This document shows positions 1,210 through 54,099 of a stretch of 64,000 nucleotides of DNA, piece by piece. The stretch comes from a virus. Lineage: Duplodnaviria > Caudoviricetes. A program made the position numbers and the translations under genes. The first letter of the stretch is position 1. Each line of letters opens with the position of its first letter. The stretch covers positions 160,001 to 224,000 of IMG/VR virus record IMGVR_UViG_3300025715_000009, one strand, 5' to 3'. The notes below the pieces were generated by a model, which worked only from the letters and a program-made list of their open reading frames with translations, was not told the DNA's origin and did not search any database.

Positions 1210-4200
1210 TTACTCTCTCCAACAAATTACAACCATCACAACAGCATCTTTTGCTGGAACACCAGATGCGGGTACGAATGCTTGCAAATAATCTCCAGCA
1301 TCAAAATCTATATTTTTATTGATTGCAGAATAAGATCCACTTGTCAATGTAAAAGAGTCAAGAGGAGTTACTCTGTCATTATTTCTTCTTAATTCAAATA
1401 ACTTGGATTGATTTCCAGATGCAGATTTAGCAGTAACAGATATAATAGTTCCATTATATGGCATTAAATAACCTGTTTGAGTTGCTACTGCACCGTGGAT
1501 GTTGAGATACTTACCATCAGCAACGTTGCTACCCCAATCCAAGAACATTTGAGACATGCTTAGCCACTTACTCCTTGATGAATCATATTGGAAAGTCATA
1601 TTCAAATCTGTACGATAGAATATATCTCCAGCAGAAGGAGCAGGTGAAGTTGGGAAAGAAGTTCCAGATGGCATATCAAACTGTGTTATTTTACTGTTCA
1701 ATGCTTGAATTGCATCTTGAACATTATTGGCATTTAATGAAGTAAGTGTATCATCATAACCTACTGCAAATGCATTATCTGTCAAGTGGAATCTACCACC
1801 ATTTACACTAACCATGCTAGCACGAACATCTGGAGCTGATTGAGCATCAACATGAACATCAGCATTTCCGTCTGAGGTGAGTGTATCCCAAGAATAGTTG
1901 TTATAAAACTCTACCCATACGTTTTGTGATGCACCTTTCAATAACAAATTGCCACCCATACAATCTTTTACAGTATTAGAAGAAGCTGACCCATAACTAT
2001 CAAGATGTTCAACTCCTGTATCATCAATTGTTAATCCACCCATAAATACAGAGTTGTAAGCTGTAAGATTAGCAGCATGGATAGCAGTAGCTCCAGTTAT
2101 GGAAACATCATTTCTCAATTGAACATAATCAACACCACCACCCAACATGTTTGCTGTTAATGTTCCAATTTGACAGTTATCAAACCAAATTGATGTTCCA
2201 CCAGAGGATGTAGCTGGGTGAGTGAAAATCATATCTTGTGTTCCACCAAAACCTATATTCTTGGCAAACCATCTTCCACCACTTGTAAAGTTTGCAATAT
2301 GGTCACCAGTTTCTGTTCTTACTTTTGTTGTTTCTTTGGAAAGACCCATGATTCCAATCCATGGTTTTAATGTCAAATCCTCTAAATAAGTTCCAGGCAT
2401 AACAAATACTACATAATACTTGGTTGAAGAAGCATCCGTAATAGAATTCAATGCTGCTTGAACTGTAAGATATGGATTATCAAGAGTTCCTAATGTTACA
2501 TTTGGATTTGTATCAGTTCCATTTTTAGCAACATAAACAACATTTTGTATCTCTGTTCCCACTTCATTAGACAATTCAGTAATTGCATCTTGAACTGTTG
2601 TTGAAGATAAACTTGTTCCTGAATTATTATATGATATGTTAGATGCAGCATGTGTGTGTAGCAAGTCAGCATTACTTGCATTTGTTAATGTTTCTGCTTC
2701 AGCAGCAGTTATATCAGTATTAGGATCAGCCAACGATGCTTGAGTGAATGTTACTGTATGTGGGTTATCAGTTCTACCTTCATGATCTGATAAACCATCT
2801 AATATATTTGTAATTATATTATCTATTTGAGAAATTACTTCATCAATATCATCGCCAGTTATATTTACATCACCTGTTGAATTATAGTATAAATCATTTG
2901 CAGGGAAGAGTAGTGTTTTTGTTCCATTAAATGTTACTTTGGTTTGATTATATTCTACCCACCCCCAATATACTGTTCCACCTGATTGATTATAATCTTT
3001 TGCCCCTGTTCCTGAAGAAAGAGCAGCAGAAACAAGATATACTGTACCTGCTGATTGAGAAATTGCGTCACCACCATTATGAGAGAAATCACCATTATGA
3101 ACACGTAATGTTCCACTGGTAATATCTGTTACTGCTTCAACTACTTTAGAATCATAGAATTCAACTACACCTGCATCAATTCTAAACGTTCCACCTCTAA
3201 GATTTACATGTCTAAATGTTTGACTAAATGCTCCATTGATAAATGCTGTTCTTGCTCCAGATGTAGCTAATATATCAACATTAAAGATAGTTGGATTATT
3301 ACCAGTTATAGTTAGAGCTGCATCAGTTGTCATACTTGATGTAGATACTAAAGAAAGATTATATACACCATTTGATTTCTCTGTTGTAGATCCTACAGAC
3401 AGTGTTGTTCCAGAAGAAGATATAATTCTTGCTGCATTTTTTTGTGGTGATGCAAGATAGACAAATGGTTTATTTAATACAACATTCTCGTTATAATCAC
3501 CAGGCATAATATATACAACATATCGATTTGTAGATGATGCACCAGTAATAGAATCAATTGCTGCTTGAACTGTAAGATATGGGTTAGCAATTGTGCCTAA
3601 TGTAACGTTAGGATTTATATCTATGCCATTTTTGGCTACAAAAACTATATTATTTAAATCAACACCTTGTTCTGTAGCAATTTCATCAATTGCTGCTTGA
3701 ACTGTTGTTGCAGCAAGACCAGACGTTGTATTATTAAAAGAGATCGCAGTAGCAGGGTGAGAGTTAGCAGAATCTCTATCCCCTAAAGCATCGTGACTAC
3801 CCCAATCAACGTCTGCTATCTTAATCCAATCTGGTGGAAGACCAGATGAATCATAAACATATTGAGCAGATTTGCCATCACCATCATCTGAAACAACAAC
3901 CGCCCAATTATCTTGTGGTGCTGGATCTGGATCCCAAGAATCTCCATCCCACTCATATATTCTATCATCTGATCCTGTTCCATCTTTAAATATAACACGT
4001 GTTCCAGTAGTTGGAGAACCCTGATCTGTCCAAACACCAGAAGTATATCTATATAAATGATCATTATCTGTTGACAAATAGAATTGACCTTCTTCTGCAG
4101 TAGCTGGTATAGCTGAATATGCACCTTTACCAACAAGATTTCCTAATGCCGGAGATTGCCATTCTAATGCTCCAAATTGTGGAGCGTGAATTATATTATC

Positions 4201-4632
4201 CCAGTGAATTGAAACTGTTCCTGCGTTTGATGTTCCTAATTCTGTTTCTGTATAATAACGACTATCATGGTGGTGGAGTGTTGTTCCATTACCAGAAGTC
4301 AATTCATTTAATTCTGATAAAGTTATATCAGTGTTGGTATCTGCAGCTAAAGTTTGAGTAATTGTTGTATTGTGTGGGTTATCTCTATCAAAACGTGATG
4401 TTATAGAAAGAGCAGCAATTGCATCAGCAATGCTCATATCTCCACCATTATCTCCTATATCCGTAGTTGATAGAATTAAATTACCTGCTGTAATTGCAGC
4501 AGTTAAATCTGTCGTAAGATAAGCATTTATACCATTACTATCAATTACTAATGATTGATTGTTTGGGAGGGAAATACCAAGATCAATAACATTTACGAGT
4601 GATCCACTGGTGTTTTTCAAATAATAAGTCAT
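1210..4632 (-). CDS. Multidomain virion structural/fibre protein with two beta-helix-like domains
   Basis: Start moved to ATG 4632 (MTYYLKN, SD GAGGAG), matching the paralogous N-terminus of 10046..12112. Two internal copies of VAKNG.D.NPNVTLGT..NPYLTVQAA, DNPH and HxH knots, C-terminal YD..RSKWLS...WR module. Confidence 0.75.
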   Translation of the reverse strand: MTYYLKNTSGSLVNVIDLGISLPNNQSLVIDSNGINAYLTTDLTAAITAGNLILSTTDIGDNGGDMSIADAIAALSITSRFDRDNPHNTTITQTLAADTNTDITLSELNELTSGNGTTLHHHDSRYYTETELGTSNAGTVSIHWDNIIHAPQFGALEWQSPALGNLVGKGAYSAIPATAEEGQFYLSTDNDHLYRYTSGVWTDQGSPTTGTRVIFKDGTGSDDRIYEWDGDSWDPDPAPQDNWAVVVSDDGDGKSAQYVYDSSGLPPDWIKIADVDWGSHDALGDRDSANSHPATAISFNNTTSGLAATTVQAAIDEIATEQGVDLNNIVFVAKNGIDINPNVTLGTIANPYLTVQAAIDSITGASSTNRYVVYIMPGDYNENVVLNKPFVYLASPQKNAARIISSSGTTLSVGSTTEKSNGVYNLSLVSTSSMTTDAALTITGNNPTIFNVDILATSGARTAFINGAFSQTFRHVNLRGGTFRIDAGVVEFYDSKVVEAVTDITSGTLRVHNGDFSHNGGDAISQSAGTVYLVSAALSSGTGAKDYNQSGGTVYWGWVEYNQTKVTFNGTKTLLFPANDLYYNSTGDVNITGDDIDEVISQIDNIITNILDGLSDHEGRTDNPHTVTFTQASLADPNTDITAAEAETLTNASNADLLHTHAASNISYNNSGTSLSSTTVQDAITELSNEVGTEIQNVVYVAKNGTDTNPNVTLGTLDNPYLTVQAALNSITDASSTKYYVVFVMPGTYLEDLTLKPWIGIMGLSKETTKVRTETGDHIANFTSGGRWFAKNIGFGGTQDMIFTHPATSSGGTSIWFDNCQIGTLTANMLGGGVDYVQLRNDVSITGATAIHAANLTAYNSVFMGGLTIDDTGVEHLDSYGSASSNTVKDCMGGNLLLKGASQNVWVEFYNNYSWDTLTSDGNADVHVDAQSAPDVRASMVSVNGGRFHLTDNAFAVGYDDTLTSLNANNVQDAIQALNSKITQFDMPSGTSFPTSPAPSAGDIFYRTDLNMTFQYDSSRSKWLSMSQMFLDWGSNVADGKYLNIHGAVATQTGYLMPYNGTIISVTAKSASGNQSKLFELRRNNDRVTPLDSFTLTSGSYSAINKNIDFDAGDYLQAFVPASGVPAKDAVVMVVICWRE

Positions 4633-39831: not shown

Positions 39832-42800
39832 TTATTTAACTATAATCATTCTAATTATATCATTCTGTGATCTTGCTAATGTCAATACTCCATTCTCAAG
39901 TTGAACCATGTCAATACCAACTGTCTTACCAGTAGATGGATCAAAGAATGTGAATACAGCATCATATGAAGCATCAACTTGTATCAATGATATATAAGCA
40001 TTTTTTGTAGGATCCCAAGTCCATTTTTGAATATCTTTTGTTATACTATTATTTGCCTTCTTCACAATAAAGACATTCATTGTCGTAGCATTATCTGCTG
40101 TCTTTACTCTTATTGTATTGAGATCAATAAATTCTATTGATTCGGCTCCTGTAAGCCAACCAAGACCTAATGTTGTATCAATATCAAATGTTGATACCAT
40201 GAGTTTATTAGTATTAAAATTATGAACTATATCAGCATAATATCCACCTTGACCATCTGGCGTCCATTGACTTACTACTTTAGAATATTTATCAATTACT
40301 CCAAACACTGTAATATCTAAATTAAGAGAATTGTCAGCAACATAAATACGAACATTGTTTGCATCTAATCTTTCTATTTCTTCAACACCTATTACTATTC
40401 CATTTTCTGTAATAAGACAAACGACATCTGTTGTTCCTAATCCATGATTTACATCAGCATAATAATATCCATTATATTGCCCAGATCCAACTTGCCAAGC
40501 TGTATTTAATATTTCACCTTGTGATGATGTTTTGTCTTTTTGATTGAGATAAACATAATCAATTGCTGCTTGTACTGTTGTTGCTGGAATAGTAGAAGTT
40601 GTATTATTATATGATATGTCAGAAGCTTGGCCCCAATCAATATCGGCAATTTTAACCCATGCTGTTCCACTCCATACATATTGTGCTTGTCTTCCATCAC
40701 CATCATCTAATACTGTTCGAGCATTTCCAACTGTATTTCCTGATGTTGGAAGATCAGCATAAGTATTAACTGGTGATTGCCAAGATAATGCCCCTGCTAA
40801 TGCTGCTATCTTATCATCAACTTCTGCTAATGCACCTTCGACTGTTGTTGCAGTATATTTACCTGCAACATCTTGTATACTAATTAATGAAGCACCTTTA
40901 CCTACTGTTGTACTTGCTAAATCTTGTCTAATAGATAAATCACCATTTACACGATTATTAATCTCAGTTGATAGTCCAGTGCTTAATGCCCCAACAGATT
41001 GATTAAGATTAAATATGTCGTTTGAATTAACTGCAATTGCAACATTAGCAGATGATATATTTTGTGTATTTGTAGTAATTCTACTTTCATGATTCATCAA
41101 GTTTGGTTTTGTTGCTAAAGCATTCCAAGTAGAACCGTCAATACCGTCTTTCATTAATCCTAATGTATTGTTTATATTAGATATACTTGATGAATTAGAA
41201 GATGTGTTTGTTTGTAATGTTGATATGTCTGATATCATACCTTGAATTGCATTATAATTCCCAGCAACAGTCATAGAAGCATTTCTTCCTGGTCCGGCTA
41301 ATTCTTGTAGCACATCTTCAACTGTTGTTTCTATAAATAATCCATTGCCTTCTACTCCAATTAGTGATGCTCCACGATTAAGATCTTGACTCAACAAATC
41401 AGTTCTTAATGCATTTACAGTTGCTTGTCTATCATTTACTTCTTGTGTAATTCTTGATGATAGTGTAACATTATTCATTGTAGAAGCAATAAAACTAGAT
41501 CCAATAGCAGTTGCGGATGATAATGTTGCTCCTAATGAAGAAATTAAATCTAAATAAGAAATTCCAGATTGTATATTAATTGCATGACCAAGTGTATAAT
41601 CTGTTTTATCAAATATTCTAATATTATATAATGTGTTAACTCCATCGATATAAGATATTGCTTCAATACGATATGATAAAGATAGTGGAAGGCCAGATGT
41701 AGTATGTATTGCATTTGGCAAATAATTTATAATCAAATCTTCCCAAGTTATTATTGATGATGTAGTAAAATAATACTCTCCACCATTGATAATAAGAGAA
41801 TAATCACCATTAGATGAAAGAGCAGTATCATCAGCATCTACAAATCCAGTTAAAATATCTTGATAAGATTCTGCTACAGATGTTTGATTGTCTTTTATTG
41901 ATTCAACTTCTATATCAAGAGCAGTTAAATTTGTTTTAATATTATAAATATTATAACCACTTGACTGAGCCAAACTTCTAGTCCATAATCCAGAATTCCC
42001 ATCTTGCATATAATCAAGATCTTCTAATGAAGTAGAAGTTGATGATCCAATTGCAGTAATATCATCTTTTAAAGATTTCAAACTTTCAGTTGTTCTACCA
42101 GCACCTGCAATTTCTTGTAATATGTCTTCTACCGTAGTAGCAGAGTATCTAGCACCAACATCATAGACACCAATTAGTGCCGCACCTTTATTTATATCCG
42201 TAGATGCATACAAATCTTTTATTTGTTGATCTGCAATAACTCTAGCATTTATTTCATTATTCAAACCATCAGATAAAGTATCAATATTGCCATCAAGTGT
42301 ATTAACTGCATTATTAGTATTAATAAGATTATTTTGAATTGAAGTTGTTTTAATATCTAAATTTAATGCAGTTGCCTCAAGAGTTGTTATTCTATTTTCG
42401 TGATTACCAACACCAGATGGTAAAGATGAAGAATCTTGATTAAATGGCCAAGCATACCCAGTGAAATTCTTTAATTTACTAATTGCATTATCATTATTGA
42501 TTTCATTCTCTTCATATTCTGCCACTCTACTTTGTAATGAGTTGACAGTATTCACAATATCATTTGTTATATCAACATATTCATAAGTATCTTGTTTTAT
42601 GCCAAGAATTTCATTTTTCATTTCTTCTATATTAGAAGAAATAAATGATTCATTATAAAATTCATAAGTAGTATTCCAATTTAATACTTCTGAATCTGTT
42701 GTTGTATAGTCGTGAATTATTACATCTTTTACAACAATATCAGCGGCTTTTTCTGTACTTGTGTCGTATCCAATATACATATCAGCCCATATGTTGTTTG

Positions 42801-45800
42801 CAAATGGAGAATCAATGATATAATTAAAATAATCGAACCAATAAACAAATCTATTGTTGATATAATCATAAACAAAACCAATAGAATGCCATTGATTAAA
42901 GAAATCATCGGTTGTTTCAAATCTCCAAATTGATGAAGAATCATTATTTATAGAATATTCAAATATACCTCTATTTTTGTCTGAATCAAAATAATAAATA
43001 ACTTTTAATCCAAGAGATTGATTAACAATTCCAGCATCATAAGCAGGCAAAGAAATTATTGTTTTTGTTTCATTATTCTCGTATTCAAAATATGGTTTAA
43101 ATTTAAAGAATATAGTTCCTCTTTCTTTGTTAAGCAAAGATTTACCAATCTTAATTCTACCAATAGTATTATTAGTTGACTCAACAAATGGAGAAGCAAA
43201 TGTTTTTGCTTCTAATTGAACTGAATCAATATAAATACGATCAACTTCTTTTATAACAAATCCAATATTATAATCACCTGCATATTCATTTATAAATGTA
43301 TAAATTACTCTCCACCAATTATCATCAAGTTTTTCAATCTTAGTCCAATTTTTTTCTTCATTAGTAATCTTACATTGTAAATGATTAGATGTAATTCTGT
43401 CATCACTATGAATATAAGCAGATAATGTATATTTTGTATTCTCTTGTAAGAATTTTCTTTGAGTTATATAAAGAGGAACTGTGGACATCTTTTCAACAAC
43501 TAAAGAATTTTCAGAGAATTTATTATATTTTGGATTAAGATTAAAAGAGACAGTGTTATTTAATGGTGTTTCTAAAACAACTGATATATCCCAAATTTCA
43601 GAACCAGGAACTCCAACTTGTTTTAATCCAGATATTACCTGTATTGGATTAATTACACCAACATCTTCTTTAAAATCAACTTCAATAGAGGAGGCAACAA
43701 AATCATCTGTTAAGAACATTAATCTTCCATTTCTTATACCCCAAGTAATTCTTGTATTTATTCCTTCAAATGCAGCATACATCATCTTCTCTAATTCATA
43801 TTGATTAGAAATTGTTACTCTAGCATAACCATCAAATGCTGCTGGAAGAGTAGAATAATTCACACCTATTGCAGTTAACAAATCGTTCGTTTCTGTTGTG
43901 TCTGTAAATTTAACGCCTGAATTTGTGCCTTCAAAATTTGATATTGCTCTAATATCTAATCCAACTTTATTCCAAGATATACCTAAATTTAAATTGTTTA
44001 ATTTAGAAAGGATAATATCCCATCTATCATCTACTGGTGTTCCATATTGTTTTGTTTGAGTAGTTGCATCAAGTGCATCTAATAATTCACAAGTTGGATT
44101 TATTTCAACAGATGCAGTATCTCCTCTTGCTGTTGTTGTGGCTCTTAATTTGCCATTTACAATTGACCATATAAGATCGCCTGATGTAACAACATTTAAT
44201 TTATTTACAAGACTTGCAAATGTTGTATTTGCATTTGATCCTTCTTGGAAAATTAAATATCTAGCTCCAGCAGTTCCAGATCTTGGATTTATATTAACAG
44301 CACCATTTTCTATATTTGTAAATCTAACATATGGTAATTTACCTTGATAATTTACGGCTAATGTTATAACACCATTTAATGTTCCTATTGATGGATCAGA
44401 AATATAGTGTGTATCATCTGTTGTAACTATTTCAACAACTGCACCAGTCCCAGATGCATTAAATTCTGCTGCAGTATTTACCGTAGTTCTTATTGCATCT
44501 GCTATCTCTTCTTTTGTAACAAGCCCATCAATTTCAACTTTAATTCCAGTATAACCAGATGGAGAAGGATTGGTTGTTGGTTTTATACCACTTGTTATTA
44601 CACTACCAGTAAAATTAATATAAGAAAAATCAGGTGGTGAAACAGATTCTTTTACAGCATTTGTAACTGTCAATATATTATTAAGAACAGTTGAATTAAA
44701 ATCAATAACACTATTTATTCTACTATTAGTTAATGATGCTACATCGTTTGCTGACTCATTTGCAGCAATTTCAACCATATGTCCAATACCAGAACCTAAA
44801 TATGTTTTTGCTCTATAATTTTTACCCTTTACTTTAAGACTAAAAATCATATCAGAGCCAAATGTTCCATTTGAAGATTCAAGACTGGTTGCTCCTGCAG
44901 GAATAATAAATCTGGCTGTATATTCACCTTCACTGTTATAATTTCTTATCATCGAATCATTTGTAAATCCAGATACTTGAGCGGTCAATACAGCAATTGT
45001 TTTTTCTATAATAGCAATTCTCTGATCAACACCAGTTATTGAAGAATCAAGATCTACTTTAATTCTATTTTTATCAGAAGGTGGAAGTGTAACAGATTGA
45101 TTATTAACAGTATAATAAACATAATAATCTCCTGTTGGCGTTGATAACTCAAAATATTTACCTTCATAGTCTTCTTTTAATTTAATCGTATCTGTGAATT
45201 CAAGAGTAAATTGTTCTTGAACTGCAGGCTGATTTATTCCAGGATCACGGCCATCATTAGCAACATTATACCAGAAATAGTGCTCATTTCCACCGCCTGA
45301 AATGGTAAAGAATTTTTCATTAAGCATTAAATTTGGATCATTGCTTGTTGTGTCATCAGCAGAACAAGTAATTTCTGTAACTTGTTCAACGCCAGCTTGA
45401 TTAGCATCAAACCATACATAATATAATCTATCATTACCATATTGATCATTGCTCATAATAGTAAAATATTTACTATCATAATCAAGAATATTGTTTGATA
45501 GTGCTGTTATTGTGGTAGTTTCTGCTTGACCATTATGCTTGGTTGCAGTCATTTTGGTGACTGGGAACGCAGTCGCAACTTTTGTTAAAATTGCATCTTG
45601 ATTATCACCACTTGCTATTACTACCTCAACACCAGTTTTTGTGCTTGGAGAAGCAAGATTTGTATCTGGCGCAGCACCTACTTTTGTTGTTGTAATTGTA
45701 AATATTCCAATTGAATCATGATCTTCTGCTAATGAAAGAGTAGCATTTTGAGTATTTGTTATTGTAATAACATTATCAACTCTTTGAATGTTAAAATCTG

Positions 45801-48800
45801 AAATTGGAGATAATAGTGTTACTATTCTATTTGCTATTTCATTTCTTAAAACTTCAGGACCAAGAACACTATATGTTAAATTAAGCGGCAAATAAGATCC
45901 TGTATTCCCAAAATCTGGAGTACTACCAGAAACAGTTGAAACATCAATCCAAATGTTTACTGCTGTTCCATCATTTTTATATATTGTAAATCCTTTGCCT
46001 TCCCACGATGTATATCCTGGTATATCCCAATTTAAATTCACAGTAATAACTGTTGTTTGTTTTTGTCCAGCGGGGTCACGTGATCCACCATCCAGATATG
46101 TTCCATCAGAGAACCAAACATAATATTGTGTTTCGTCTCTTAAAGAAGAAATCTCAAAGAATTTATTTTTTAAATAACCAAGATCACCAACAACGGTTAT
46201 ATCTGTTATTTCTTTTGTTCCTTCAAGTTTAACAGTCTTATCAACAACAGTTGATCCAGGATAAAGAGTATATTGTAAATCATATTCTGTTTCCACACCA
46301 CTTGGATTTAAAGGAGTAGGAGATGAACCAGTGATTGAAGAAGAAAATGTTAGTTCTTGATATCCAGGATCTGCTTCTAATTCAATTGTGTGTCTCTCAG
46401 TTGGTTGGCCGTTTATATCAATATCAAATACAAATTCACCAGCACCAACTCCTGATGAAGCATTAAAATCTGTAATATTAAGACCAAGATCTTGATATCC
46501 TGCAGCGGCAGAATATTGTGGTAAATCTGGGTTCACAACGTTAATAGTTATACCAGTATTATCTGATATCAATCTTGACTCATAGGTTTTTATTCTCCAA
46601 TTAGATTCAAGAACAAGTGGTGTAGTATAATCAATAACTGTAGTTTGGGCAAGAGCATTGTGATTACCAGAGAAATTAGAGTTTTGTAATATGTTCTCTG
46701 TTGGGTTGCCAATAAACCAAGCCTGATATCCATCTTCCCAAGTCATTCTCTTGTTTGTCTCTGGCAAGAATCTATTTTTCTTAGCACCAAGATCTGAATC
46801 ACCTTTTAATGACCAATATTCTTGTAATGTACGTGGATCAAGAGTTCTAGCAAGAGGAATTTGATTTACATAAGACACAGGATCGTTGAATTGAACTTTT
46901 TTTACATTCCAAAGTTCGAATTGTTTACGATCAATGAATCTGTTATCGATTCTAAACTCATCATAATAACCAGTCATCTTATTAGAACCATCAAATGCGG
47001 CACCAATAGTTATATATTTTGTAATATCATTATAATTCCAAGCATTGTTTCCATCATCACCCCTACCAGGGATAAGTTTTCCATTTGTGTATCTTGAAAG
47101 ATCATATTTAACAAATGATTCAATTGATTCTTGATCATTATGATAGAAAATAATAATATTTTGTAATTTATTATATTCATCAAACTGTGGTTTAGAGTTA
47201 ATTATTTTTTCATAGTTGATTGTAAAAGAAAGCCTATGCCATTTTTGATATTCTTCATCAGATGTGATGTCAATTGGAGAAATTATAGAATAAGATTTTT
47301 CTTTATTAGCAACTATAACCCTAAAGTGATATGGGTCTGTTGGTGAATTGGTAGGATCTGGTTCTACTGAATGATTATCAAGAGCATTGTTGTTATAAGC
47401 CAATACAATATAATCTTCATTATCATCAGCAACTCTTGTATCAAATAAAATACCAGAGTTAGCAACTGATCCTGCTGGTTTAAATTCTAATGTAACAGTT
47501 ATTTTTTCAGAATTTATAGCCATTGCATAACGAATTGCTTCATCAATATAAGCAGTGTAATTCTTTAATTTTCTTGGGATGTCTTTTTCTGTTTGCTGTC
47601 TTATTTCTGCATAACAGCCAAGATCTAATCCACCTCTACCTTGCTCAAGAGCAGGAGAGTCTGATGTTGATCCTTTTGCAATTGACTTCAAATGATAATC
47701 ATCCTCACCAATAAACTGTGGAGATCCACCAACACCTTCAGAATAAATACAAGATTCTCTGCCCAATAAATCACCACTTCTATAGTTAAAGTTTGTATAT
47801 TCTCCAACCCCAGTAGAGAAATTTGGGAAATCAATAAAACAAGTGTCAAAATTTACTGATGAGTTTGTATTGAATGGTTTTGCTTGATCACCAAGTACTT
47901 CATTATTATTAAATAAAATTGAGTTAGAATAATTAATTATTAAATCATATTTTGGTGTAGCAAACAAACCATTATTATCTGCAATAGTACAGAAATCAAA
48001 CCCAAAACTTCCAGACCAATTTGGTTCAGGATCAAATTCAACAATATGATCTGTTGAATTGTGAATAAGACAATTTTGGAAAGTATATGATGCTGATTGT
48101 TGAACAATGTTTGTGAATACATCACCAGGCGCAATAGACTCATTATCACTTGTAGCAACAGATAATGGAGTGCCTGTAATACCATCATCTCTTTCACTTG
48201 ATTTCATATATGGGTGAATAAATGGAGATGGATATAAGATATTCTTTACACGAATCAATGAATTATGATTATATCTTGCTTCAGAATTATATATATTTAT
48301 TTTTTGTGGAGAAACACAGTTTAAAGATGTATTTTCAAACGTACAATAATAAATTGATAGTTCATTATAAGGATAAAGAGAAGTATTTTTAAAATAAATG
48401 CCTTGTAAATTAAGTTTAGTGATGTTTTGAATTGATCCAAGCCAATTACAATAAGATTTAGCAACAATGGAAACGGTAAATGGTTTATCAATTTCTATAT
48501 TTTCTGTGATGTTTGCTGGTTGAGTAATAATAATATTAGTAACATAATCATCAGTATCATTATAATACAATGCATCAAGTGCTTTTTTAACTGTTTTAAA
48601 TGCTGTTGTTTCAGATCTACCATTGTTAGTATCTAAACCAGAAATTGGGTCTACAAACACAGAGAATGATGTTCCTGGATAAGTAAATTTAGTTCTTAAT
48701 CCTAATTGATATCCATCATGCCATGCGCCAATTTCTTCAAGTTGAATAACAGAATAATTTTTAATGATAGGTATAATTTTGCTATTCTGAATAAAATTGA

Positions 48801-51800
48801 GAGGCGTGAGTCCATTTGTAGAATTAAAGTCTTTCTTAAATGGGAAGTAGGCAAGTGTTTCTGGTAATAATGAAATATTAAAATTAAGATTATCACGAGC
48901 ATCAATATAAATTCTTCTATCGTAAATATCATTGATTTGATAATCATTGTCAACAACATTTATTTCATAAAGAACATCATTATTTGTATTGTCTTCTATT
49001 TCATATATTTCAACACCGTTATAATATTGTTTTGATTCTCTTATTCCAGTTCCTACACCTGGATCATATGGTTTATATGGATTATCATAAGCAGATCTAC
49101 CACGAACAATATAAATAAAATTACCAAATCTATCTGGAGTATTACGAATTTTAATTTGATCAATTCTTGGATAATGATAATTATAAGATACCTTTATAGG
49201 ATCTTGTATTTCAAGAGACAACATTGCAAACATTTGATTGATTGCCCAAATTCTTCCTTCAGGGCGGAGTAAGAAATAATCATCTCTTGGATCATAAATA
49301 ATAGTTGTTATAGGTTTAGAATTTCCAAAATCATAAGCATTGAATATTTTTTCATATTTATATTGGAAGTAAAAATATTCATTATCAGATATTGTTTCAT
49401 GGATTGTGATCTTTCTTGTGTTTGTATCAAAAGAATAATCAATTCCTTTTTCCATTTCTTGATATTCAACAAAATCTGCCCAAACGTGCATGTTTGGATC
49501 AATACGAGAGAATCTTGATCCTTCAATAAATGGAGTTGCTGAAGCATTCTTTTCTAATTGTACTTTATCAACTAATAATTGACCTGTAGTAAGAGAATAA
49601 ATTTCTACTCTCAATTTAGTTGTTCTTGAATCTTGTACTTCATGAGATAAAGACAGTCTATGCCATTTATCATAATCTTCTACATCTTCAAAATTGTTGA
49701 ATTCACCAATTTCTTTAATTAAAACAGAAGATCTAAATACAGTATCAGTAAAAGAGTTAGATGATTTATTATATCCAAAATTATTTACATTAGAATTATC
49801 ACACTCTGAAATTCTTATTATTGCTTTTGAATAATTGTATGATTTAAGATCTAATGATAAAGTATATGTATCAGATGCAAAATCAACATCTTTTACTTGA
49901 TAAATTAATCCTATTTCTTCACCAGAAGTCTCTGGTTGTAATACAAATTCTGTTATATCGTTTCTATCATCATAGAGATCTTTTGTTTGTTTAAATCTTG
50001 TTTCTATTTCATTACCATTTAATAAATGTAAATCCCAAGAAGTTGGCACATTATCATTATAAAATTTTTCCCAAATTGTTTCTATTGTAGATCCACTTGG
50101 ATTTATGCAGCGATAATAAGTACTTTCATTAGACACAAACCAAGCATCGTTCAACACCATGCCATTGACTGGTAATTCACTTTTTAAAGATTTTTGTCCT
50201 TTATAAACATAACCAAATTTTTGGATAGCGGATTGGAAATAAGAGAAATCTGGATTAGATAACAAGTTATCTGTGTCAGATCTTATTATTTTATTGTTTG
50301 TATAATCAACAAAATAATCTTCACCTTCTGTAAATCCTACTTCTGCAACGGTGTTTGTCTTTAATCTTACTGAACCTTTGAGAAGATTATAACCTGGATC
50401 TATTGGAAGATCGATCCAAACTTTATTTATAGAAGTATCACCAAATGTTTTTTCTACGTTATCAATATGTTTATATTTTGTCAATACAACATCATCATAA
50501 ATTTTCCATTTTGTATAATATGGAATTTCAACCCAATGATCTCCAAGCCATTGATAATATGCTTTATCTAAAACATGCCAAATATCGCCAACATTAGAGG
50601 AATTGAGTGATTTTGGAAGTAATTCTTCTGTTAATACAGTTCCTTTTATGATTGGAGTGTCTGGATAAAACCCAGAACTATTCTTTAAAACATTAGGATC
50701 ATATTTGGATTGGAATATTTGCTTTCCTCTAATTATATAAAACTTTTTTGTTTGATTTTCAGGGATAAATATTTTGTGAACGTTTCCACGAATGTGTTTA
50801 GTTAAATCTTTTCTTCCTATGGAATAAAATCCATCTGTTTTAATTGAAGAAGATTCTGGAATTTTCCAATCAAAGTCTGGAGATATTGAATCTTGACCTC
50901 TCGGATCTAACCATTCTAATTTTGCTCCAGAATATATTGTTTTAATTGCTTCATATATTTGTTGAATAGTCCAAGGACCTGAATCTTCTTTTGGTGATAT
51001 AATAGTTATTTGTTCACCATCTTTTTTACCATCAACCCAAACTTCAAAACCATATCTTTCATTTGGCTTATAATAACCCAATGTTGTATCACCATTTGGA
51101 TCAATAACTTCATAGCAGTGTTCTATTCTTGTAAATTCTCTTGAAGCGGAGTCTACACCATTTGAATAAACAAATATATTCTCACCTAATAAATCCAAAA
51201 GTTGTTCACTATCATCTGTAGCAGGTTTAAATTCTATAGTATGATCATTTGCATCATCTTTATATTTTGCTTTTATTACTCTATTGTCAACTGTTCCGCC
51301 AAAAAGAATACGATCATTGAATTTTGCAATTGATTCAAACTTATAAATATTTTTTGTAAAATCAAGATCACTTTCTTTTTCACCAATATCAACAAGAGTA
51401 AATCTGTCATACGTAGTATAATTATTTAAGAAAACAAGGGAGTAAATTCTCTTATCATCTGCAACAAACATTCTATTAGAATCATCATGTAAAGCAGCAT
51501 TTACTCTTTTAATTTTACCATATTTACCATTTACATATTTTATTGCTTGTGGTCCTGTTGGGTTTTTTATATCAATAAAAGCAAATGGTGGATCTTGGGT
51601 ATTATTTGGTTGTTTTTCAAAACCAATAAAGAGATATTCATAGTTTTCAACATATTGAGATGCTTGATATAATCCTTGGATGGCAACATTGATTGAGAAG
51701 CCTTCTGGTCCTAATGTTCCTGCTTCAGCATCTACAACTTCTCCTGGCAGATCAGTCTTAACTTGAACTTTTATAGTGTTTTGAATTCTGTAAGCCACAA

Positions 51801-54099
51801 AATCTGACAAGAAGTTAATTGCAGCAGCAGTTTTATCAGCAACATTAATTGCTGTATCATTTTTATTAATTAAAACGGAAACACCGGTTTTAGTTGCTAA
51901 TTGTGGATATAATGGAAGACCACTTCCTGGAGAAGATTCTACCAATTTGGGATCAAGAGAATCACCAACACCATTAAGGTCTGTATCAACATTCATCCAA
52001 ACATAATAATCAGTAAATGGAGAATTTATAAGAAAATATTTTCCAGACAAAGAACCATTTACATCGGCAGCACAAGTTATATCTGTAATTTCTATTCCTG
52101 TATTATCTATCTCTTCTAATTGTGCTCCATCTATTTGAAGTGGTGTATTAGATTCACAATTAATATAATATTTCAAATATTTTGCATCATTAGAAGATAC
52201 CCTAAATGATAGTTCTGGTCTTATCCACGTGTTGATATTGCTTGAATCTATTGCCCAATTTTCTTCACTAAGTGTGATAATTTCATCATTTGCATTATAC
52301 TCAGCAATTCCAATTGTAGAATTTTGTGGAGCAACTGATTTTAAGAAAACAGAAAAATTATAAATTCTATTTCTTGAATTTGGCTCTAAAAGATATGTTT
52401 GCCAGACAGTAGCCTTAGAAGCAGAAACATATTTTGTAAGTACACCTTTATAATTACCCCATCTATCAGTATTAGAATTACCAGAAGAGGCTGTCATCTT
52501 GAATGTAGAAAGCATTGGGATGAGATTGTCAGTTATATTCCAGTTTGTAGGAGTATCTCCAGGAACGCCTGTTTCAAATGATCCGTTTTTTGAGAGATTA
52601 AAAATATTTTTATTGATAGATGTATCAATTATAATATTTCCTCTTGTTCTCTCTAATGTTGTAATTGTTTTTACAAGTGGATTTCCTGCTTGGTCTTTTA
52701 TTGTTGTATTTAAATCTAATGCAGTAAATGTCCAATTAAACATATCGTCTTCATCTATAACTTCACTTAAACGTTGATCAGAATGCCAAAGTGTTGTTTC
52801 ACCAGCAATCCAAATTTGATCATTCCATTCATACATAGATATAATGTTTTGATCAGTGCTAAATAATCCGAGTGTTTTTACAGCAGCCTCAGGAAATGTA
52901 TTAGTTAAATCAATTGCTCTAATAAAACCATTTGTTCCGAATACAAATAAATGATTTTTAAATCTCTTTATGCCAGTGTTAATAAATGTGGTTGATCCAC
53001 TGCTAATATCTTTTTGTTGCAATTGTATTGATACAGCGGATTTATAATATAGGTACTTTGTCTGTGTAGATCTAAGAATAAAATAGATATTATCATTAGA
53101 ATCAACATATAGATCTTGAATATCAGCATTAGAATCTAAAAGATTTTCTGCTACTGACCATTGAATGTCGTTAAAGAAGATACCATCTGTTATAACTTCA
53201 TATTCTTTTTCACCAGTTGTTAAATTTGTTGTAAATCTATTTTTTTCTAAGAATTTATCTTTTATTTCAATATCTTTTTTTATTTCGACATTAGATACAT
53301 ATGTTCCTGGAATTGTTTGACCTTCATCAGTTGGACATTTTAACCAATAGCCTTCACTACTCTGACCAAAATTGATATCATTTTGGAAGTTAACAACTTC
53401 ATTAGTAGATGCTTTTGAATCTGCTTTTAATGGTGTTATTTCTTCCCAATCTCTATATGTTTTATATACTAAAACTCTATCGTCTTGACTTGGATTAGTT
53501 GTTGATTTATTAGTAATTTTTATTTCATAAGACTCAAAATTATCCGGGAGATTTTCAGATATTGTTGTATAAACAACTCTATATTCACCAAAATAATTAT
53601 CATCTTTAAGATCAGTAAAGGCAACTCCATCTTCATATTCAGGGAAAAGAAGTGAATCATCTTCTCGCAAGAAATATAATATTTTTTGATTTCCAATACG
53701 AGTAACTTTACCATTTATAATAGAAGAGCCAGAATTAACTCTAAGAGGTGTTATAAATATTTCAGAGGATGGAACTTCAGGGTCAGTATAATAATCTTGT
53801 GTTTGTATGTCAAGTGAAAATTCGTTATATTTATTTTTAAAAACACCATGATCTACTTCAGAAGCAACATCAGAAATGTTTTTATCTAATATAACATCAT
53901 TCTCTACCAAGTTTTTGAGTGGTCTATTATCTGTAGAAGCAACAACTTCATCTTCTTCAATATAAGCCTCTACACCAGGACCAATAATTTCTCCATTGAT
54001 ATCATAGGCCAATCCTTTAGTATTTGGATTGTCTCTATCACTATGATCTGGATATGGATTTCCTATTGAACCCGTGCTCCATTTTTTGATAACGCTCAT
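39832..54099 (-). CDS. Giant (4755 aa) baseplate-associated fibre protein
   Basis: N-terminal NRPLKNL..ND anchor; three CBM-like N...N..F...D..QLE domains; beta-helix (FVDPISGLDTNNG...FKTV); LamG-like domains; coiled coils; C-terminal H.LGT repeats. Confidence 0.8.
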   Translation of the reverse strand: MSVIKKWSTGSIGNPYPDHSDRDNPNTKGLAYDINGEIIGPGVEAYIEEDEVVASTDNRPLKNLVENDVILDKNISDVASEVDHGVFKNKYNEFSLDIQTQDYYTDPEVPSSEIFITPLRVNSGSSIINGKVTRIGNQKILYFLREDDSLLFPEYEDGVAFTDLKDDNYFGEYRVVYTTISENLPDNFESYEIKITNKSTTNPSQDDRVLVYKTYRDWEEITPLKADSKASTNEVVNFQNDINFGQSSEGYWLKCPTDEGQTIPGTYVSNVEIKKDIEIKDKFLEKNRFTTNLTTGEKEYEVITDGIFFNDIQWSVAENLLDSNADIQDLYVDSNDNIYFILRSTQTKYLYYKSAVSIQLQQKDISSGSTTFINTGIKRFKNHLFVFGTNGFIRAIDLTNTFPEAAVKTLGLFSTDQNIISMYEWNDQIWIAGETTLWHSDQRLSEVIDEDDMFNWTFTALDLNTTIKDQAGNPLVKTITTLERTRGNIIIDTSINKNIFNLSKNGSFETGVPGDTPTNWNITDNLIPMLSTFKMTASSGNSNTDRWGNYKGVLTKYVSASKATVWQTYLLEPNSRNRIYNFSVFLKSVAPQNSTIGIAEYNANDEIITLSEENWAIDSSNINTWIRPELSFRVSSNDAKYLKYYINCESNTPLQIDGAQLEEIDNTGIEITDITCAADVNGSLSGKYFLINSPFTDYYVWMNVDTDLNGVGDSLDPKLVESSPGSGLPLYPQLATKTGVSVLINKNDTAINVADKTAAAINFLSDFVAYRIQNTIKVQVKTDLPGEVVDAEAGTLGPEGFSINVAIQGLYQASQYVENYEYLFIGFEKQPNNTQDPPFAFIDIKNPTGPQAIKYVNGKYGKIKRVNAALHDDSNRMFVADDKRIYSLVFLNNYTTYDRFTLVDIGEKESDLDFTKNIYKFESIAKFNDRILFGGTVDNRVIKAKYKDDANDHTIEFKPATDDSEQLLDLLGENIFVYSNGVDSASREFTRIEHCYEVIDPNGDTTLGYYKPNERYGFEVWVDGKKDGEQITIISPKEDSGPWTIQQIYEAIKTIYSGAKLEWLDPRGQDSISPDFDWKIPESSSIKTDGFYSIGRKDLTKHIRGNVHKIFIPENQTKKFYIIRGKQIFQSKYDPNVLKNSSGFYPDTPIIKGTVLTEELLPKSLNSSNVGDIWHVLDKAYYQWLGDHWVEIPYYTKWKIYDDVVLTKYKHIDNVEKTFGDTSINKVWIDLPIDPGYNLLKGSVRLKTNTVAEVGFTEGEDYFVDYTNNKIIRSDTDNLLSNPDFSYFQSAIQKFGYVYKGQKSLKSELPVNGMVLNDAWFVSNESTYYRCINPSGSTIETIWEKFYNDNVPTSWDLHLLNGNEIETRFKQTKDLYDDRNDITEFVLQPETSGEEIGLIYQVKDVDFASDTYTLSLDLKSYNYSKAIIRISECDNSNVNNFGYNKSSNSFTDTVFRSSVLIKEIGEFNNFEDVEDYDKWHRLSLSHEVQDSRTTKLRVEIYSLTTGQLLVDKVQLEKNASATPFIEGSRFSRIDPNMHVWADFVEYQEMEKGIDYSFDTNTRKITIHETISDNEYFYFQYKYEKIFNAYDFGNSKPITTIIYDPRDDYFLLRPEGRIWAINQMFAMLSLEIQDPIKVSYNYHYPRIDQIKIRNTPDRFGNFIYIVRGRSAYDNPYKPYDPGVGTGIRESKQYYNGVEIYEIEDNTNNDVLYEINVVDNDYQINDIYDRRIYIDARDNLNFNISLLPETLAYFPFKKDFNSTNGLTPLNFIQNSKIIPIIKNYSVIQLEEIGAWHDGYQLGLRTKFTYPGTSFSVFVDPISGLDTNNGRSETTAFKTVKKALDALYYNDTDDYVTNIIITQPANITENIEIDKPFTVSIVAKSYCNWLGSIQNITKLNLQGIYFKNTSLYPYNELSIYYCTFENTSLNCVSPQKINIYNSEARYNHNSLIRVKNILYPSPFIHPYMKSSERDDGITGTPLSVATSDNESIAPGDVFTNIVQQSASYTFQNCLIHNSTDHIVEFDPEPNWSGSFGFDFCTIADNNGLFATPKYDLIINYSNSILFNNNEVLGDQAKPFNTNSSVNFDTCFIDFPNFSTGVGEYTNFNYRSGDLLGRESCIYSEGVGGSPQFIGEDDYHLKSIAKGSTSDSPALEQGRGGLDLGCYAEIRQQTEKDIPRKLKNYTAYIDEAIRYAMAINSEKITVTLEFKPAGSVANSGILFDTRVADDNEDYIVLAYNNNALDNHSVEPDPTNSPTDPYHFRVIVANKEKSYSIISPIDITSDEEYQKWHRLSFTINYEKIINSKPQFDEYNKLQNIIIFYHNDQESIESFVKYDLSRYTNGKLIPGRGDDGNNAWNYNDITKYITIGAAFDGSNKMTGYYDEFRIDNRFIDRKQFELWNVKKVQFNDPVSYVNQIPLARTLDPRTLQEYWSLKGDSDLGAKKNRFLPETNKRMTWEDGYQAWFIGNPTENILQNSNFSGNHNALAQTTVIDYTTPLVLESNWRIKTYESRLISDNTGITINVVNPDLPQYSAAAGYQDLGLNITDFNASSGVGAGEFVFDIDINGQPTERHTIELEADPGYQELTFSSSITGSSPTPLNPSGVETEYDLQYTLYPGSTVVDKTVKLEGTKEITDITVVGDLGYLKNKFFEISSLRDETQYYVWFSDGTYLDGGSRDPAGQKQTTVITVNLNWDIPGYTSWEGKGFTIYKNDGTAVNIWIDVSTVSGSTPDFGNTGSYLPLNLTYSVLGPEVLRNEIANRIVTLLSPISDFNIQRVDNVITITNTQNATLSLAEDHDSIGIFTITTTKVGAAPDTNLASPSTKTGVEVVIASGDNQDAILTKVATAFPVTKMTATKHNGQAETTTITALSNNILDYDSKYFTIMSNDQYGNDRLYYVWFDANQAGVEQVTEITCSADDTTSNDPNLMLNEKFFTISGGGNEHYFWYNVANDGRDPGINQPAVQEQFTLEFTDTIKLKEDYEGKYFELSTPTGDYYVYYTVNNQSVTLPPSDKNRIKVDLDSSITGVDQRIAIIEKTIAVLTAQVSGFTNDSMIRNYNSEGEYTARFIIPAGATSLESSNGTFGSDMIFSLKVKGKNYRAKTYLGSGIGHMVEIAANESANDVASLTNSRINSVIDFNSTVLNNILTVTNAVKESVSPPDFSYINFTGSVITSGIKPTTNPSPSGYTGIKVEIDGLVTKEEIADAIRTTVNTAAEFNASGTGAVVEIVTTDDTHYISDPSIGTLNGVITLAVNYQGKLPYVRFTNIENGAVNINPRSGTAGARYLIFQEGSNANTTFASLVNKLNVVTSGDLIWSIVNGKLRATTTARGDTASVEINPTCELLDALDATTQTKQYGTPVDDRWDIILSKLNNLNLGISWNKVGLDIRAISNFEGTNSGVKFTDTTETNDLLTAIGVNYSTLPAAFDGYARVTISNQYELEKMMYAAFEGINTRITWGIRNGRLMFLTDDFVASSIEVDFKEDVGVINPIQVISGLKQVGVPGSEIWDISVVLETPLNNTVSFNLNPKYNKFSENSLVVEKMSTVPLYITQRKFLQENTKYTLSAYIHSDDRITSNHLQCKITNEEKNWTKIEKLDDNWWRVIYTFINEYAGDYNIGFVIKEVDRIYIDSVQLEAKTFASPFVESTNNTIGRIKIGKSLLNKERGTIFFKFKPYFEYENNETKTIISLPAYDAGIVNQSLGLKVIYYFDSDKNRGIFEYSINNDSSSIWRFETTDDFFNQWHSIGFVYDYINNRFVYWFDYFNYIIDSPFANNIWADMYIGYDTSTEKAADIVVKDVIIHDYTTTDSEVLNWNTTYEFYNESFISSNIEEMKNEILGIKQDTYEYVDITNDIVNTVNSLQSRVAEYEENEINNDNAISKLKNFTGYAWPFNQDSSSLPSGVGNHENRITTLEATALNLDIKTTSIQNNLINTNNAVNTLDGNIDTLSDGLNNEINARVIADQQIKDLYASTDINKGAALIGVYDVGARYSATTVEDILQEIAGAGRTTESLKSLKDDITAIGSSTSTSLEDLDYMQDGNSGLWTRSLAQSSGYNIYNIKTNLTALDIEVESIKDNQTSVAESYQDILTGFVDADDTALSSNGDYSLIINGGEYYFTTSSIITWEDLIINYLPNAIHTTSGLPLSLSYRIEAISYIDGVNTLYNIRIFDKTDYTLGHAINIQSGISYLDLISSLGATLSSATAIGSSFIASTMNNVTLSSRITQEVNDRQATVNALRTDLLSQDLNRGASLIGVEGNGLFIETTVEDVLQELAGPGRNASMTVAGNYNAIQGMISDISTLQTNTSSNSSSISNINNTLGLMKDGIDGSTWNALATKPNLMNHESRITTNTQNISSANVAIAVNSNDIFNLNQSVGALSTGLSTEINNRVNGDLSIRQDLASTTVGKGASLISIQDVAGKYTATTVEGALAEVDDKIAALAGALSWQSPVNTYADLPTSGNTVGNARTVLDDGDGRQAQYVWSGTAWVKIADIDWGQASDISYNNTTSTIPATTVQAAIDYVYLNQKDKTSSQGEILNTAWQVGSGQYNGYYYADVNHGLGTTDVVCLITENGIVIGVEEIERLDANNVRIYVADNSLNLDITVFGVIDKYSKVVSQWTPDGQGGYYADIVHNFNTNKLMVSTFDIDTTLGLGWLTGAESIEFIDLNTIRVKTADNATTMNVFIVKKANNSITKDIQKWTWDPTKNAYISLIQVDASYDAVFTFFDPSTGKTVGIDMVQLENGVLTLARSQNDIIRMIIVK

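Follow-up and report, generated by a model that had tools for sequence, protein, structure and literature searches.

Gene and Setting

The window, a stretch of 64,000 nucleotides from an uncultured jumbo phage, carries the gene of a giant tail-fibre-type protein of 4755 residues (P0001), which is encoded by a single ORF on the minus strand (39832..54099) and has phage tail and baseplate genes as neighbours. Searched over its whole length, P0001 has no Pfam match with an E-value of 0.1 or less, and a weak match to a tail-needle PHROG was found at residues 4331-4417. A region of about 1,170 residues (2468-3640; window 43180-46698, minus strand) has diverged more than any other part of the protein: identity to the orthologue is 33-54% here and 57-84% in the remainder, as would fit an exposed structure subject to host-range pressure. 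In this region, a sequence-only reading of the DNA had proposed that domains are inserted into one another's loops, the chain running out through a series of first halves and back through the corresponding second halves. The landmark motifs on which that proposal was built were each located where it had placed them, and all are in the frame of the ORF. The observation stands up in our analysis; six levels are firmly established, and eight are likely.

Layout of the Nest

The first strand of a CBM-like domain is followed by three B-type first halves and four A-type first halves, after which the second halves return in mirrored order (Table 1). One intact A copy stands within the nest as a side branch. 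Parsed manually, P0001 gives a balanced bracket string, while its automated string is not well formed because three diverged pieces fall below the threshold. A mirror-ordered mosaic might also be produced by an assembly or frame error, with DNA repeats joined wrongly, for which no support was found and which we consider next to impossible. The ORF is open across 14.3 kb, and the same order is found, at 41-45% protein identity, in a metagenome contig of independent origin (JFJP01037167.1). In addition, DNA repeats do not exceed 36 nt and are 64-86% identical, and the absence of long repeats argues that the nest is not an assembly artefact.

Table 1. Pieces of the nest in P0001, in chain order, and the reference copies outside it.
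Feature	Residues	Window position	Strand	Basis
Level 1 opens: CBM-like host first strand, NILQNSNFSG	2468-2482	46654..46698	-	start motif and conservation
Level 2 opens: putative B0 first half	2483-2533	46501..46653	-	position and size
Level 3 opens: B1 first half, GYQDLG	2534-2578	46366..46500	-	B first-half profile iE 9e-18
Level 4 opens: B2 first half, GYQELT	2579-2628	46216..46365	-	B first-half profile iE 2e-13
Level 5 opens: A5 first half	2629-2678	46066..46215	-	A first-half profile iE 3e-12
Side branch: intact A domain in A5 first loop	2679-2808	45676..46065	-	27 bits, fold match
A5 middle piece (second half, first part)	2809-2857	45529..45675	-	hhalign P 1e-5
Level 6 opens: A6 first half, in A5 second-half hairpin	2858-2903	45391..45528	-	A first-half profile iE 1.5e-11
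Level 7 opens: A7 first half	2904-2959	45223..45390	-	A first-half profile iE 1.4e-14
Level 8 (likely): innermost contiguous A8, diverged cap domain	2960-3091	44827..45222	-	first-half match hhalign P 1e-11
Level 7 closes: A7 second half, ends ITSG	3092-3171	44587..44826	-	hhalign P 4e-12
Level 6 closes: A6 second half, ends NYQG	3172-3253	44341..44586	-	hhalign P 1e-10
Level 5 closes: A5 last piece, ends FQEG	3254-3287	44239..44340	-	hhalign P 1e-3
Level 4 closes: B2 second half, ends KQYG	3288-3353	44041..44238	-	B second-half profile iE 5e-20
Level 3 closes: B1 second half, ends FDG	3354-3424	43828..44040	-	B second-half profile iE 1e-23
Level 2 closes: putative B0 second half, ends ISG	3425-3491	43627..43827	-	marginal B second-half match
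Level 1 closes: CBM-like beta-sandwich body	3492-3640	43180..43626	-	CBM4 fold, IDSVQLE at 3624
Intact A reference copy	664-812	51664..52110	-	88 bits, intact-domain profile
B 'reference' of the sequence-only reading	4076-4200	41500..41874	-	marginal B similarity

A-Type Domains

Half-domain profiles built from other proteins detected A first halves at residues 2627, 2857, 2903 and 2975, and A second halves at residues 2753 (in the side branch), 2821 (partial), 3105 and 3182. An intact-domain profile of 118 positions was made solely from intact copies in other proteins. Against this profile the uncut nest sequence matched positions 2-49 only, a new first half following. The rejoined halves of A7, A6 and A5, in contrast, align with it end to end, each in a single match over positions 2-118, with scores of 69.1, 59.7 and 55.9 bits, respectively, the best of 60 shuffles reaching 8.5 bits. 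A5 was rejoined from three pieces. Its middle piece covers positions 2-26 of the second-half profile, and its last piece covers positions 41-69, after those of the middle piece and in the same order; without the last piece, the match to the intact-domain profile is confined to positions 2-74.

The side branch matches positions 19-118 of the intact-domain profile. Uninterrupted copies of both domain types had been claimed for the same gene. For A the claim is sound, the reference copy having both halves with a longer loop between them; for B it is weaker, as detailed below. Compared with the nest, an intact A copy gives split matches. No Pfam match was found for the A-domain proteins P0001, P0004, P0011 and P0012, no PDB chain matched the A domain at the sequence level, and the PHROGs gave weak, unnamed matches only.

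B-Type Domains and the CBM-Like Host

With half-domain profiles from other proteins, B first halves were found at residues 2534 and 2579 and B second halves at residues 3291 and 3357. The profile of rejoined B1 and B2 matched intact B-like domains at P 7e-4 only, in the same order across the junction. Clear intact B copies occur in the relatives P0040 and P0037. The copy proposed in P0001 itself is only marginally similar to B: hhalign gives P 0.005 in its first part, across 46 columns, and for its second half 1 of 200 shuffles reaches the observed score.

The outermost B level, proposed to run from ALAQTT to ISG, is weakly supported: its first half has no significant similarity to the B first-half profile, and its second half is marginal, the observed score being reached by 1, 9 and 0 of 200 shuffles in the three orthologues P0001, P0002 and P0009, respectively. 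B0 totals 118 residues, versus 116 for both B1 and B2. In a low-confidence model, its first half would form a beta-hairpin, and its second half would begin with a helix, like the other B second halves.

Start motifs of the NILQNSNFSG type also open CBM-like domains at residues 501 and 1278 of P0001, and each start is paired in order with an end motif, xD.VQLE, giving three pairs in the protein. The first strand of the host domain is strongly conserved in P0002 and P0010. Its body, predicted at pLDDT 73-84 in a model of the whole region, matched best the CBM4-2 structure 4bj0_A (Z 11.1, rmsd 3.1, 136 of 166 residues aligned), with many CBM4, 6, 22, 35 and 36 chains at Z 8-10. In the 4bj0_A alignment, model positions 1021-1173 (residues 3480-3632) face chain residues 16-167, and the first 15 or so chain residues have no partner. 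The closure of this domain, which was proposed to open at NILQNSNF and to be completed about 1000 residues later, is weakly supported, by the motif pair and the fold. The outermost host is, by its predicted fold, CBM-like, and carbohydrate binding is putative. Its likeness to CBM4/CBM22-type modules (4bj0_A, 1gui_A) lies in the beta-sandwich and in the start motif, which resembles their first strand, but here the module is split after that strand by about 1,010 residues and has no Pfam match.

Predicted Structures and Pairing Register

An AlphaFold2 model of the inner part of the nest (residues 2858-3253, 396 residues) reached pLDDT 78 and pTM 0.57. Structure searches with this model delineated domains that are not contiguous in sequence but enclosed in one another, at model positions 46-396, 102-317 and 150-246. 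Of the domain at 102-317, only about 87-93 residues align, to contiguous domains of 94-117 residues in solved structures of tail sheath, T4 gp11 and FliD. The top match of this split copy is 8kee_A (Z 9.9, rmsd 1.9, 87 residues aligned to the contiguous chain stretch 92-185); other matches of the A fold are 9cb9_A (Z 8.8), 9khy_a (7.9), 1el6_A (7.7) and 6kty_A (7.6). Foldseek, which aligns in sequence order only, found no significant match for the inner model. The side branch was also modelled, within a prediction of the whole region from an orthologue-only alignment, which is unbiased by distant rows; there it is contiguous (pLDDT 57-82) and matches the same residues of 8kee_A (Z 8.9, rmsd 2.1, 86 aligned). 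As judged from these models, the A fold is of the tail-sheath outer domain, T4 gp11 and FliD D2-D3 type.

The inner model pairs the first half of A8 (N8) with the second half of A7 (C7) and N7 with C6, and leaves N6 alone, which is one step off the parse in Table 1. The distant rows of its input alignment were shifted by one level, and the offset is probably an artefact of this misalignment. Taken at face value, the model would mean that the nest is real in another register, with residues 3005-3091 as a foreign small alpha/beta insert, N8 paired with 3092-3171, N7 with 3172-3253, and N6 unpaired; the partnerless N6 could then be a leftover of unequal duplication. Besides the model, whose pairing is exactly this one, the behaviour of residues 3005-3091 favours such a register: assigned in our parse to the second half of A8, they alone do not match the second-half profile (hhalign P 0.36), and in the inner model they align to ferredoxin-like folds at Z 4-4.8. 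We nevertheless regard it as unlikely. The input alignment put the innermost second half of most relatives on the A7 second half, which would push the model that way, whereas the orthologue-only alignment predicts N8 and 3005-3091 well, with the strand and helix order of the intact side branch, and A8 is among the three best-predicted stretches of that unbiased model (pLDDT 71-85). Moreover, residues 3005-3091 have the length of a second half, an 'IKVxLD' start and a terminal Gly, and no other complete protein of the family would have an unpaired first half. The A8 profile, too, aligns with relatives across domains in which N and C halves are contiguous, reaching position 123 of 136; the 'RIKVDL' start in A8 has DNA-level similarity to the starts of the A7 and A6 second halves.

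Relatives and Bracket Order

The only full-length relative, P0002, is 41% identical to P0001 and colinear with it, with the same depth and layout. A well-formed bracket string is found in 54 of 63 family proteins and, among the 40 with two or more pairs, in 35, versus 9.95 expected under random order; all exceptions are fragments or proteins with diverged or undetected halves. Strings that mix A and B always nest and never cross (nnnnNCcccc, NncC, nNCc). The two outer first halves of P0032 share 78% identity and its last two second halves 69%, the rest being at 43-56%; read from these identities, the pattern is that of a mirrored recent duplication. A and B are two undescribed domain families that follow a common nesting rule and occur in dozens of other proteins.

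These observations bear on whether there is any nesting, as the first and second halves might be two independent small modules lined up in successive arrays, like beads on a string. By sequence alone, an NNNCCC nest and two arrays are indistinguishable, and the whole-region model, which is poor (1191 residues, pLDDT 49, pTM 0.26), shows no confident long-range packing. Such arrays are nonetheless very improbable. In every complete relative, first halves are as numerous as second halves, and a lone half occurs in no protein; the proper bracketing of mixed strings has no exception, and the duplication in P0032 is mirrored. In intact copies the parts are adjacent and jointly match one compact solved domain, the fold into which halves separated by over 100 residues are packed in the confident inner model.

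Proposed Architecture

Residues 2468-3640 probably form one side arm that arose by repeated domain-in-loop insertion, and the out-and-back course first proposed for the chain is supported, in its inner part, by the rejoined A5-A7 and by the non-contiguous domains of the inner model. Neither outcome that had been named beforehand as refuting the proposal, contiguous predicted domains or rejoined halves that do not align to intact copies, was obtained. A CBM4-like beta-sandwich would be opened after its first strand, with the gap filled by a B-type domain, itself opened between its beta-hairpin and first helix; two further B domains would be opened likewise, and four A-type domains would follow inward. 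A5 appears to be opened twice, one of its loops harbouring an intact A copy and a hairpin of its second half the next level, while A6 and A7 would be opened in the loop after their 'YYVW' strand. The uninterrupted A8 would be the tip, from which the chain closes all domains in reverse. Two chain strands would then cross each joint, and the arm might therefore be a stiffer, branched projection compared with beads on a single string. It may stand out from the fibre, its outer domains contacting the host surface.

For phage biology, this suggests how one chain might build a long, branched, probably stiff arm that reaches for receptors. It would also explain why order-based structure and domain searches, as well as Pfam, are blind to these giant fibres. 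Residues 2858-3253 (396 residues) offer a concrete target for structure determination. More tentatively, A and B might constitute a general evolvable kit, with which stiff, branched, double-stranded stalks are extended level by level in phage fibres and some flagellar proteins, through mirrored duplication into a fixed loop. If so, nests would attain eight to nine levels or more, a depth beyond anything published, and recursive insertion would be a regular construction principle of virion appendages; the chances of this seem to us a little under even.

Comparison with Known Systems

Domain-in-domain nesting usually involves one or two levels. In a survey of 2.7 million domains, a six-level nest in cyanobacterial RNA polymerase was the extreme (PMC13114784). 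Nesting itself has thus already been published, and the depth of the phage nest, about eight levels in the likely parse, probably exceeds the six found in print. The earlier claim of exceptional depth holds against that literature but not within the family, where P0005 has at least nine levels.

The polymerase nest, Si3 of the beta' subunit (RpoC2), is similar in that one small domain type, the sandwich-barrel hybrid motif (SBHM), is repeatedly inserted into further copies of the same type, several domains are formed from distant chain segments, and a long projection emerges from a loop of the host (PMC10895346; PMC13114784). It differs in its units, which are SBHM, whereas here A is of the alpha/beta sheath-outer-domain type and B combines a hairpin with a helix-sheet part. 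The phage nest also mixes three domain kinds, has a side branch and likely reaches about eight levels. While Si3 belongs to a polymerase, the phage nest lies in a virion fibre and is known here from sequence and predicted structure. It would provide a second, independent and much larger natural system in which to ask how such chains fold and how levels are added.

The suggested link to tail sheath proteins and flagellins is supported by the A fold, which has Z scores of 5-7.6 against FliD D2-D3 and flagellin outer domains, and by the A domains inserted in FlgE hook and flagellin-type proteins (P0057, P0063, P0059, P0064). Flagellin D0-D3, FliD D1-D3 and the hook protein FlgE likewise run out through first parts and back through second parts around an uninterrupted tip. 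Flagellins have about four levels, with coiled-coil inner domains for filament packing, whereas the phage nest forms a side arm that emerges from a CBM-like domain's loop and has, at its likely eight levels, twice their depth. The best match of the A fold is the outer (inserted) domain of tail sheath, as in cyanophage A-1(L) (8kee_A, 92-185); T4 gp11 matches as well. Identity to the sheath domain is 13-19%, and the sheath stretch is one unbroken segment of chain that does not lie within further copies of its own kind.

Organization of the nest

P0001, the 4755-aa tail-fibre-type protein, is encoded by a single ORF on the minus strand (window 39832-54099; residue i begins at base 54099-3(i-1)), which is adjoined by phage tail and baseplate genes. 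Its residues 2468-3640 (window 43180-46698) read as a nest in which domains of two types, A and B, are split into halves and enclosed one in another within a CBM-like host domain (see table). The landmarks from which the sequence-only reading had proposed nesting of about eight levels were all recovered at their positions in the frame of this ORF. No long DNA repeats were found in the gene, and the same order of segments is present on an independent contig, so the nest is not an artefact. The whole protein has no match in Pfam, and its sole match among PHROGs is a weak one to a tail-needle family, at residues 4331-4417, outside the nest. A PDB sequence search with the nest region and with P0004, a metagenomic relative, returned no match at E <=1.

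Segments of the nest in P0001, in order along the chain (N and C, first and second half of a domain)
Segment	Residues	Strand	Place in the nest
CBM first strand	2468-2482	minus	level 1 opens
B0-N	2483-2533	minus	level 2 opens
B1-N	2534-2578	minus	level 3 opens
B2-N	2579-2628	minus	level 4 opens
A5-N	2629-2678	minus	level 5 opens
Intact side-branch A	2679-2808	minus	branch in A5
A5 middle piece	2809-2857	minus	first part of A5 second half
A6-N	2858-2903	minus	level 6 opens
A7-N	2904-2959	minus	level 7 opens
A8 (contiguous)	2960-3091	minus	level 8, tip
A7-C	3092-3171	minus	level 7 closes
A6-C	3172-3253	minus	level 6 closes
A5 last piece	3254-3287	minus	level 5 closes
B2-C	3288-3353	minus	level 4 closes
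B1-C	3354-3424	minus	level 3 closes
B0-C	3425-3491	minus	level 2 closes
CBM body	3492-3640	minus	level 1 closes

Split and intact domains

The intact A copy of P0001 (residues 664-812) matches the nest in a split fashion, its first 55 positions at nest residues 2630, 2903 and 2974 and its later positions at 2818, 3102 and 3178. That rejoined halves should align to uninterrupted copies was borne out with a profile whose members were all intact tandem copies from proteins other than P0001 (P0004, P0014, P0025 and P0024). Rejoined A7, rejoined A6 and A5 reassembled from its three pieces each gave a single match that covers profile positions 2-118 (of 118), with 69.1, 59.7 and 55.9 bits, respectively, the best of the shuffled controls reaching 8.5 bits (n=60). 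In the uncut nest sequence, positions 2-49 are matched and are then followed by another first half. The middle and last pieces of A5 correspond to positions 2-26 and then 41-69 of the second-half profile, and because these are successive parts, A5 has been opened at two loops. For the innermost domain, A8, both its status as a domain and the A identity of the first half are firm; the second half is not significant alone against the second-half profile, and is supported by its length, secondary structure and start and end motifs, by a weak same-order extension of the alignment and by short DNA similarity.

Nine B domains rejoined from their halves, drawn from four proteins, give a good mutual alignment, and their comparison with five intact B-like domains of the relatives P0005 and P0006 gave P 7e-4 over 83 columns, with order kept across the junction. 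A profile of five intact B-like domains scored at most 6.6 bits against rejoined B0, B1 and B2, too close to the shuffle maximum of 5.8 to be informative. An uninterrupted B copy is found within a split A domain in P0040 (NncC, with n at 122-162 and c at 166-233; lower case denotes B halves), and the converse, a whole A inserted in B, in P0037 (nNCc). In P0001, residues 2483-2533 and 3425-3491 are left by subtraction as one more split unit, which at 118 aa has the size of a B domain. The first half of this unit, B0, scores no higher than shuffles against the B first-half profile and its second half is a marginal match to the second-half profile; position, size and this marginal similarity lend weak support to B0 as a B-type domain.

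The model of the CBM body best matches a CBM4-2 module (4bj0_A; Z 11.1, 136 aligned). Because this match covers the chain only from residue 16 onward, the contiguous part lacks a counterpart for about one strand of the module. P0001 has three occurrences of a start motif, N-I/L-x-x-N-x-x-F-S/E, at 501, 1278 and 2469, and these pair in order with end motifs at 656, 1510 and 3624, the third pair enclosing the nest. Alignment of the rejoined domain to the intact CBM at 498-665 gave P 0.015, limited to the C-terminal 88 columns.

Predicted structures

An AlphaFold2 model of the inner region (residues 2858-3253), computed from an alignment of 22 distant nested relatives, has a mean pLDDT of 78 and a pTM of 0.57. 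Foldseek, which needs sequence order, found no match for it in the PDB at E <=0.001. A fold search independent of sequence order, against 48,161 PDB representatives, matched it to outer domains of tail sheaths and of flagellin, T4 gp11 and FliD D2-D3. In the best match, to the sheath of cyanophage A-1(L) (8kee_A; Z 9.9, rmsd 1.9, 87 aligned), model residues 103-312 correspond to one contiguous stretch of the chain, 92-185. The match ranges fall into three enclosed classes, 46-396, 102-317 and 150-246, so the model has compact domains, one enclosed in another, whose chain segments are separated by more than 100 residues. Pairing in the model is one step off the parse, N8 with C7 and N7 with C6, leaving N6 unpaired. 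In the input alignment, the innermost second half of most relatives sits on A7-C, because A8-C is diverged, and such misplacement would drive exactly this one-step shift.

Mixed MAFFT alignments of the orthologue P0002 and distant nested relatives broke the orthologue row, lowering its identity from 44% to 27-34%, and an orthologue-only alignment, in correct register, was therefore used for the whole region (1191 residues). The resulting model is poor (pLDDT 49, pTM 0.26), and three stretches of it can be used: the side-branch A domain, A8 (contiguous; pLDDT 71-85) and the body of the CBM (73-84). Side branch and A8 share their order of strands and helices in this model, and the side branch matches 8kee_A with Z 8.9 over the contiguous range 220-347.

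Relatives and the order of the halves

P0002 (4528 aa, contig JFJP01037167.1) is the only full-length relative. It is colinear with P0001 across the entire nest, to equal depth, as the comparison of relatives invited by the sequence-only reading now establishes. Divergence between the two proteins is greatest in the nest, where identity in 150-residue windows is 33-54%, vs 57-84% in the rest of the protein and 56-84% in the N-terminal 2400 residues. Searching 1.84 billion representatives, with a second search seeded with P0011, yielded 63 further proteins; a scan of viral contigs found no relative, nor did queries with the N-terminal 500 aa and P0032 against 50,697 deposited phage genomes.

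With halves labeled by four half-domain profiles, well-formed typed bracket strings were obtained for 54 of the 63 family proteins, and for 35 of the 40 that contain two or more pairs (random order predicts 9.95). Examples are NNCC (many), NNNCCC, NNNNNCCCCC (P0012), the branched NNNCCNNCCC (P0018) and nnnnNCcccc (P0006); the exceptions, among them P0001, are fragments or proteins with diverged or undetected halves. The string of P0005 runs N N n N N N N N, a diverged innermost domain and then the mirror, which amounts to at least nine levels. In P0008 (residues 100-1780), some 380-390 residues of another domain, propeller-like by sequence, lie between successive A first halves, after which comes a run of second halves; a large side branch of about 385 residues appears to sit on every A level.

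In P0032 (456 aa, three levels), identity is 78% between the two outer first halves and 69% between the last two second halves, every other pair of halves falling at 43-56%. This mirrored identity is the pattern expected from recent addition of one whole level, which is what P0032 looks like, and it raises the question of in-step duplication of two separated DNA segments. A permutation test for co-divergence of halves gave no informative signal for P0012, P0005, P0021, P0016 and P0041; the mirrored pattern was seen only in P0032 and P0026.

The A type has no Pfam family. Single uninterrupted A domains occur inside bacterial proteins of the FlgE hook type (P0057, P0063) and flagellin-N type (P0059, P0064), and in the sheath-like phage proteins P0051 (DUF3383) and P0060 ('tail sheath gpL-like'), which makes the A type a surface-decoration module common to flagella and phage tails.

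Depth of the nest and known systems

Rejoined halves, relatives and the inner model together uphold the sequence-only reading that domains in P0001 are nested. On sequence grounds B1, B2, A5, A6 and A7 can be firmly taken as levels, and fold and motifs argue for the CBM host as another. Six levels are firm, seven are probable and eight are likely. The nest may form an extended, stiff arm, which might have a role in host binding.

The out-and-back order is also that of flagellar axial proteins, with about four levels. Nested insertion is already established in Si3 of cyanobacterial RNA polymerase, which holds eight SBHM copies, four of them from distant segments (PMC10895346), and is cited in a survey of 2.7 million domains (PMC13114784) as the extreme case, nested to six levels, vs the likely eight levels of P0001. 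A literature search turned up no paper that describes nests of this kind in phage fibres. What P0001 adds to the established picture is a pair of undescribed domain families and a branched nest of mixed types, likely eight levels deep.

Other parts of P0001

The second CBM-like motif pair (window ~49560-50270, residues 1278-1516) spans 239 residues, vs 162 for the first; an insert, smaller than the nest, may be present within it. Blade-like repeats are seen by eye at window ~51000-53100 (residues ~330-1000), on either side of the uninterrupted CBM (498-665) and A copy (664-812), both of which may sit inside a β-propeller as a second, shallower nest. In the C-terminal part of the fibre (window ~40700-42400, residues ~3890-4470), three similar segments alternate with coiled-coil-like stretches, each segment ending in a motif of the 'GASLIGV...ATTVE..LQE' type.
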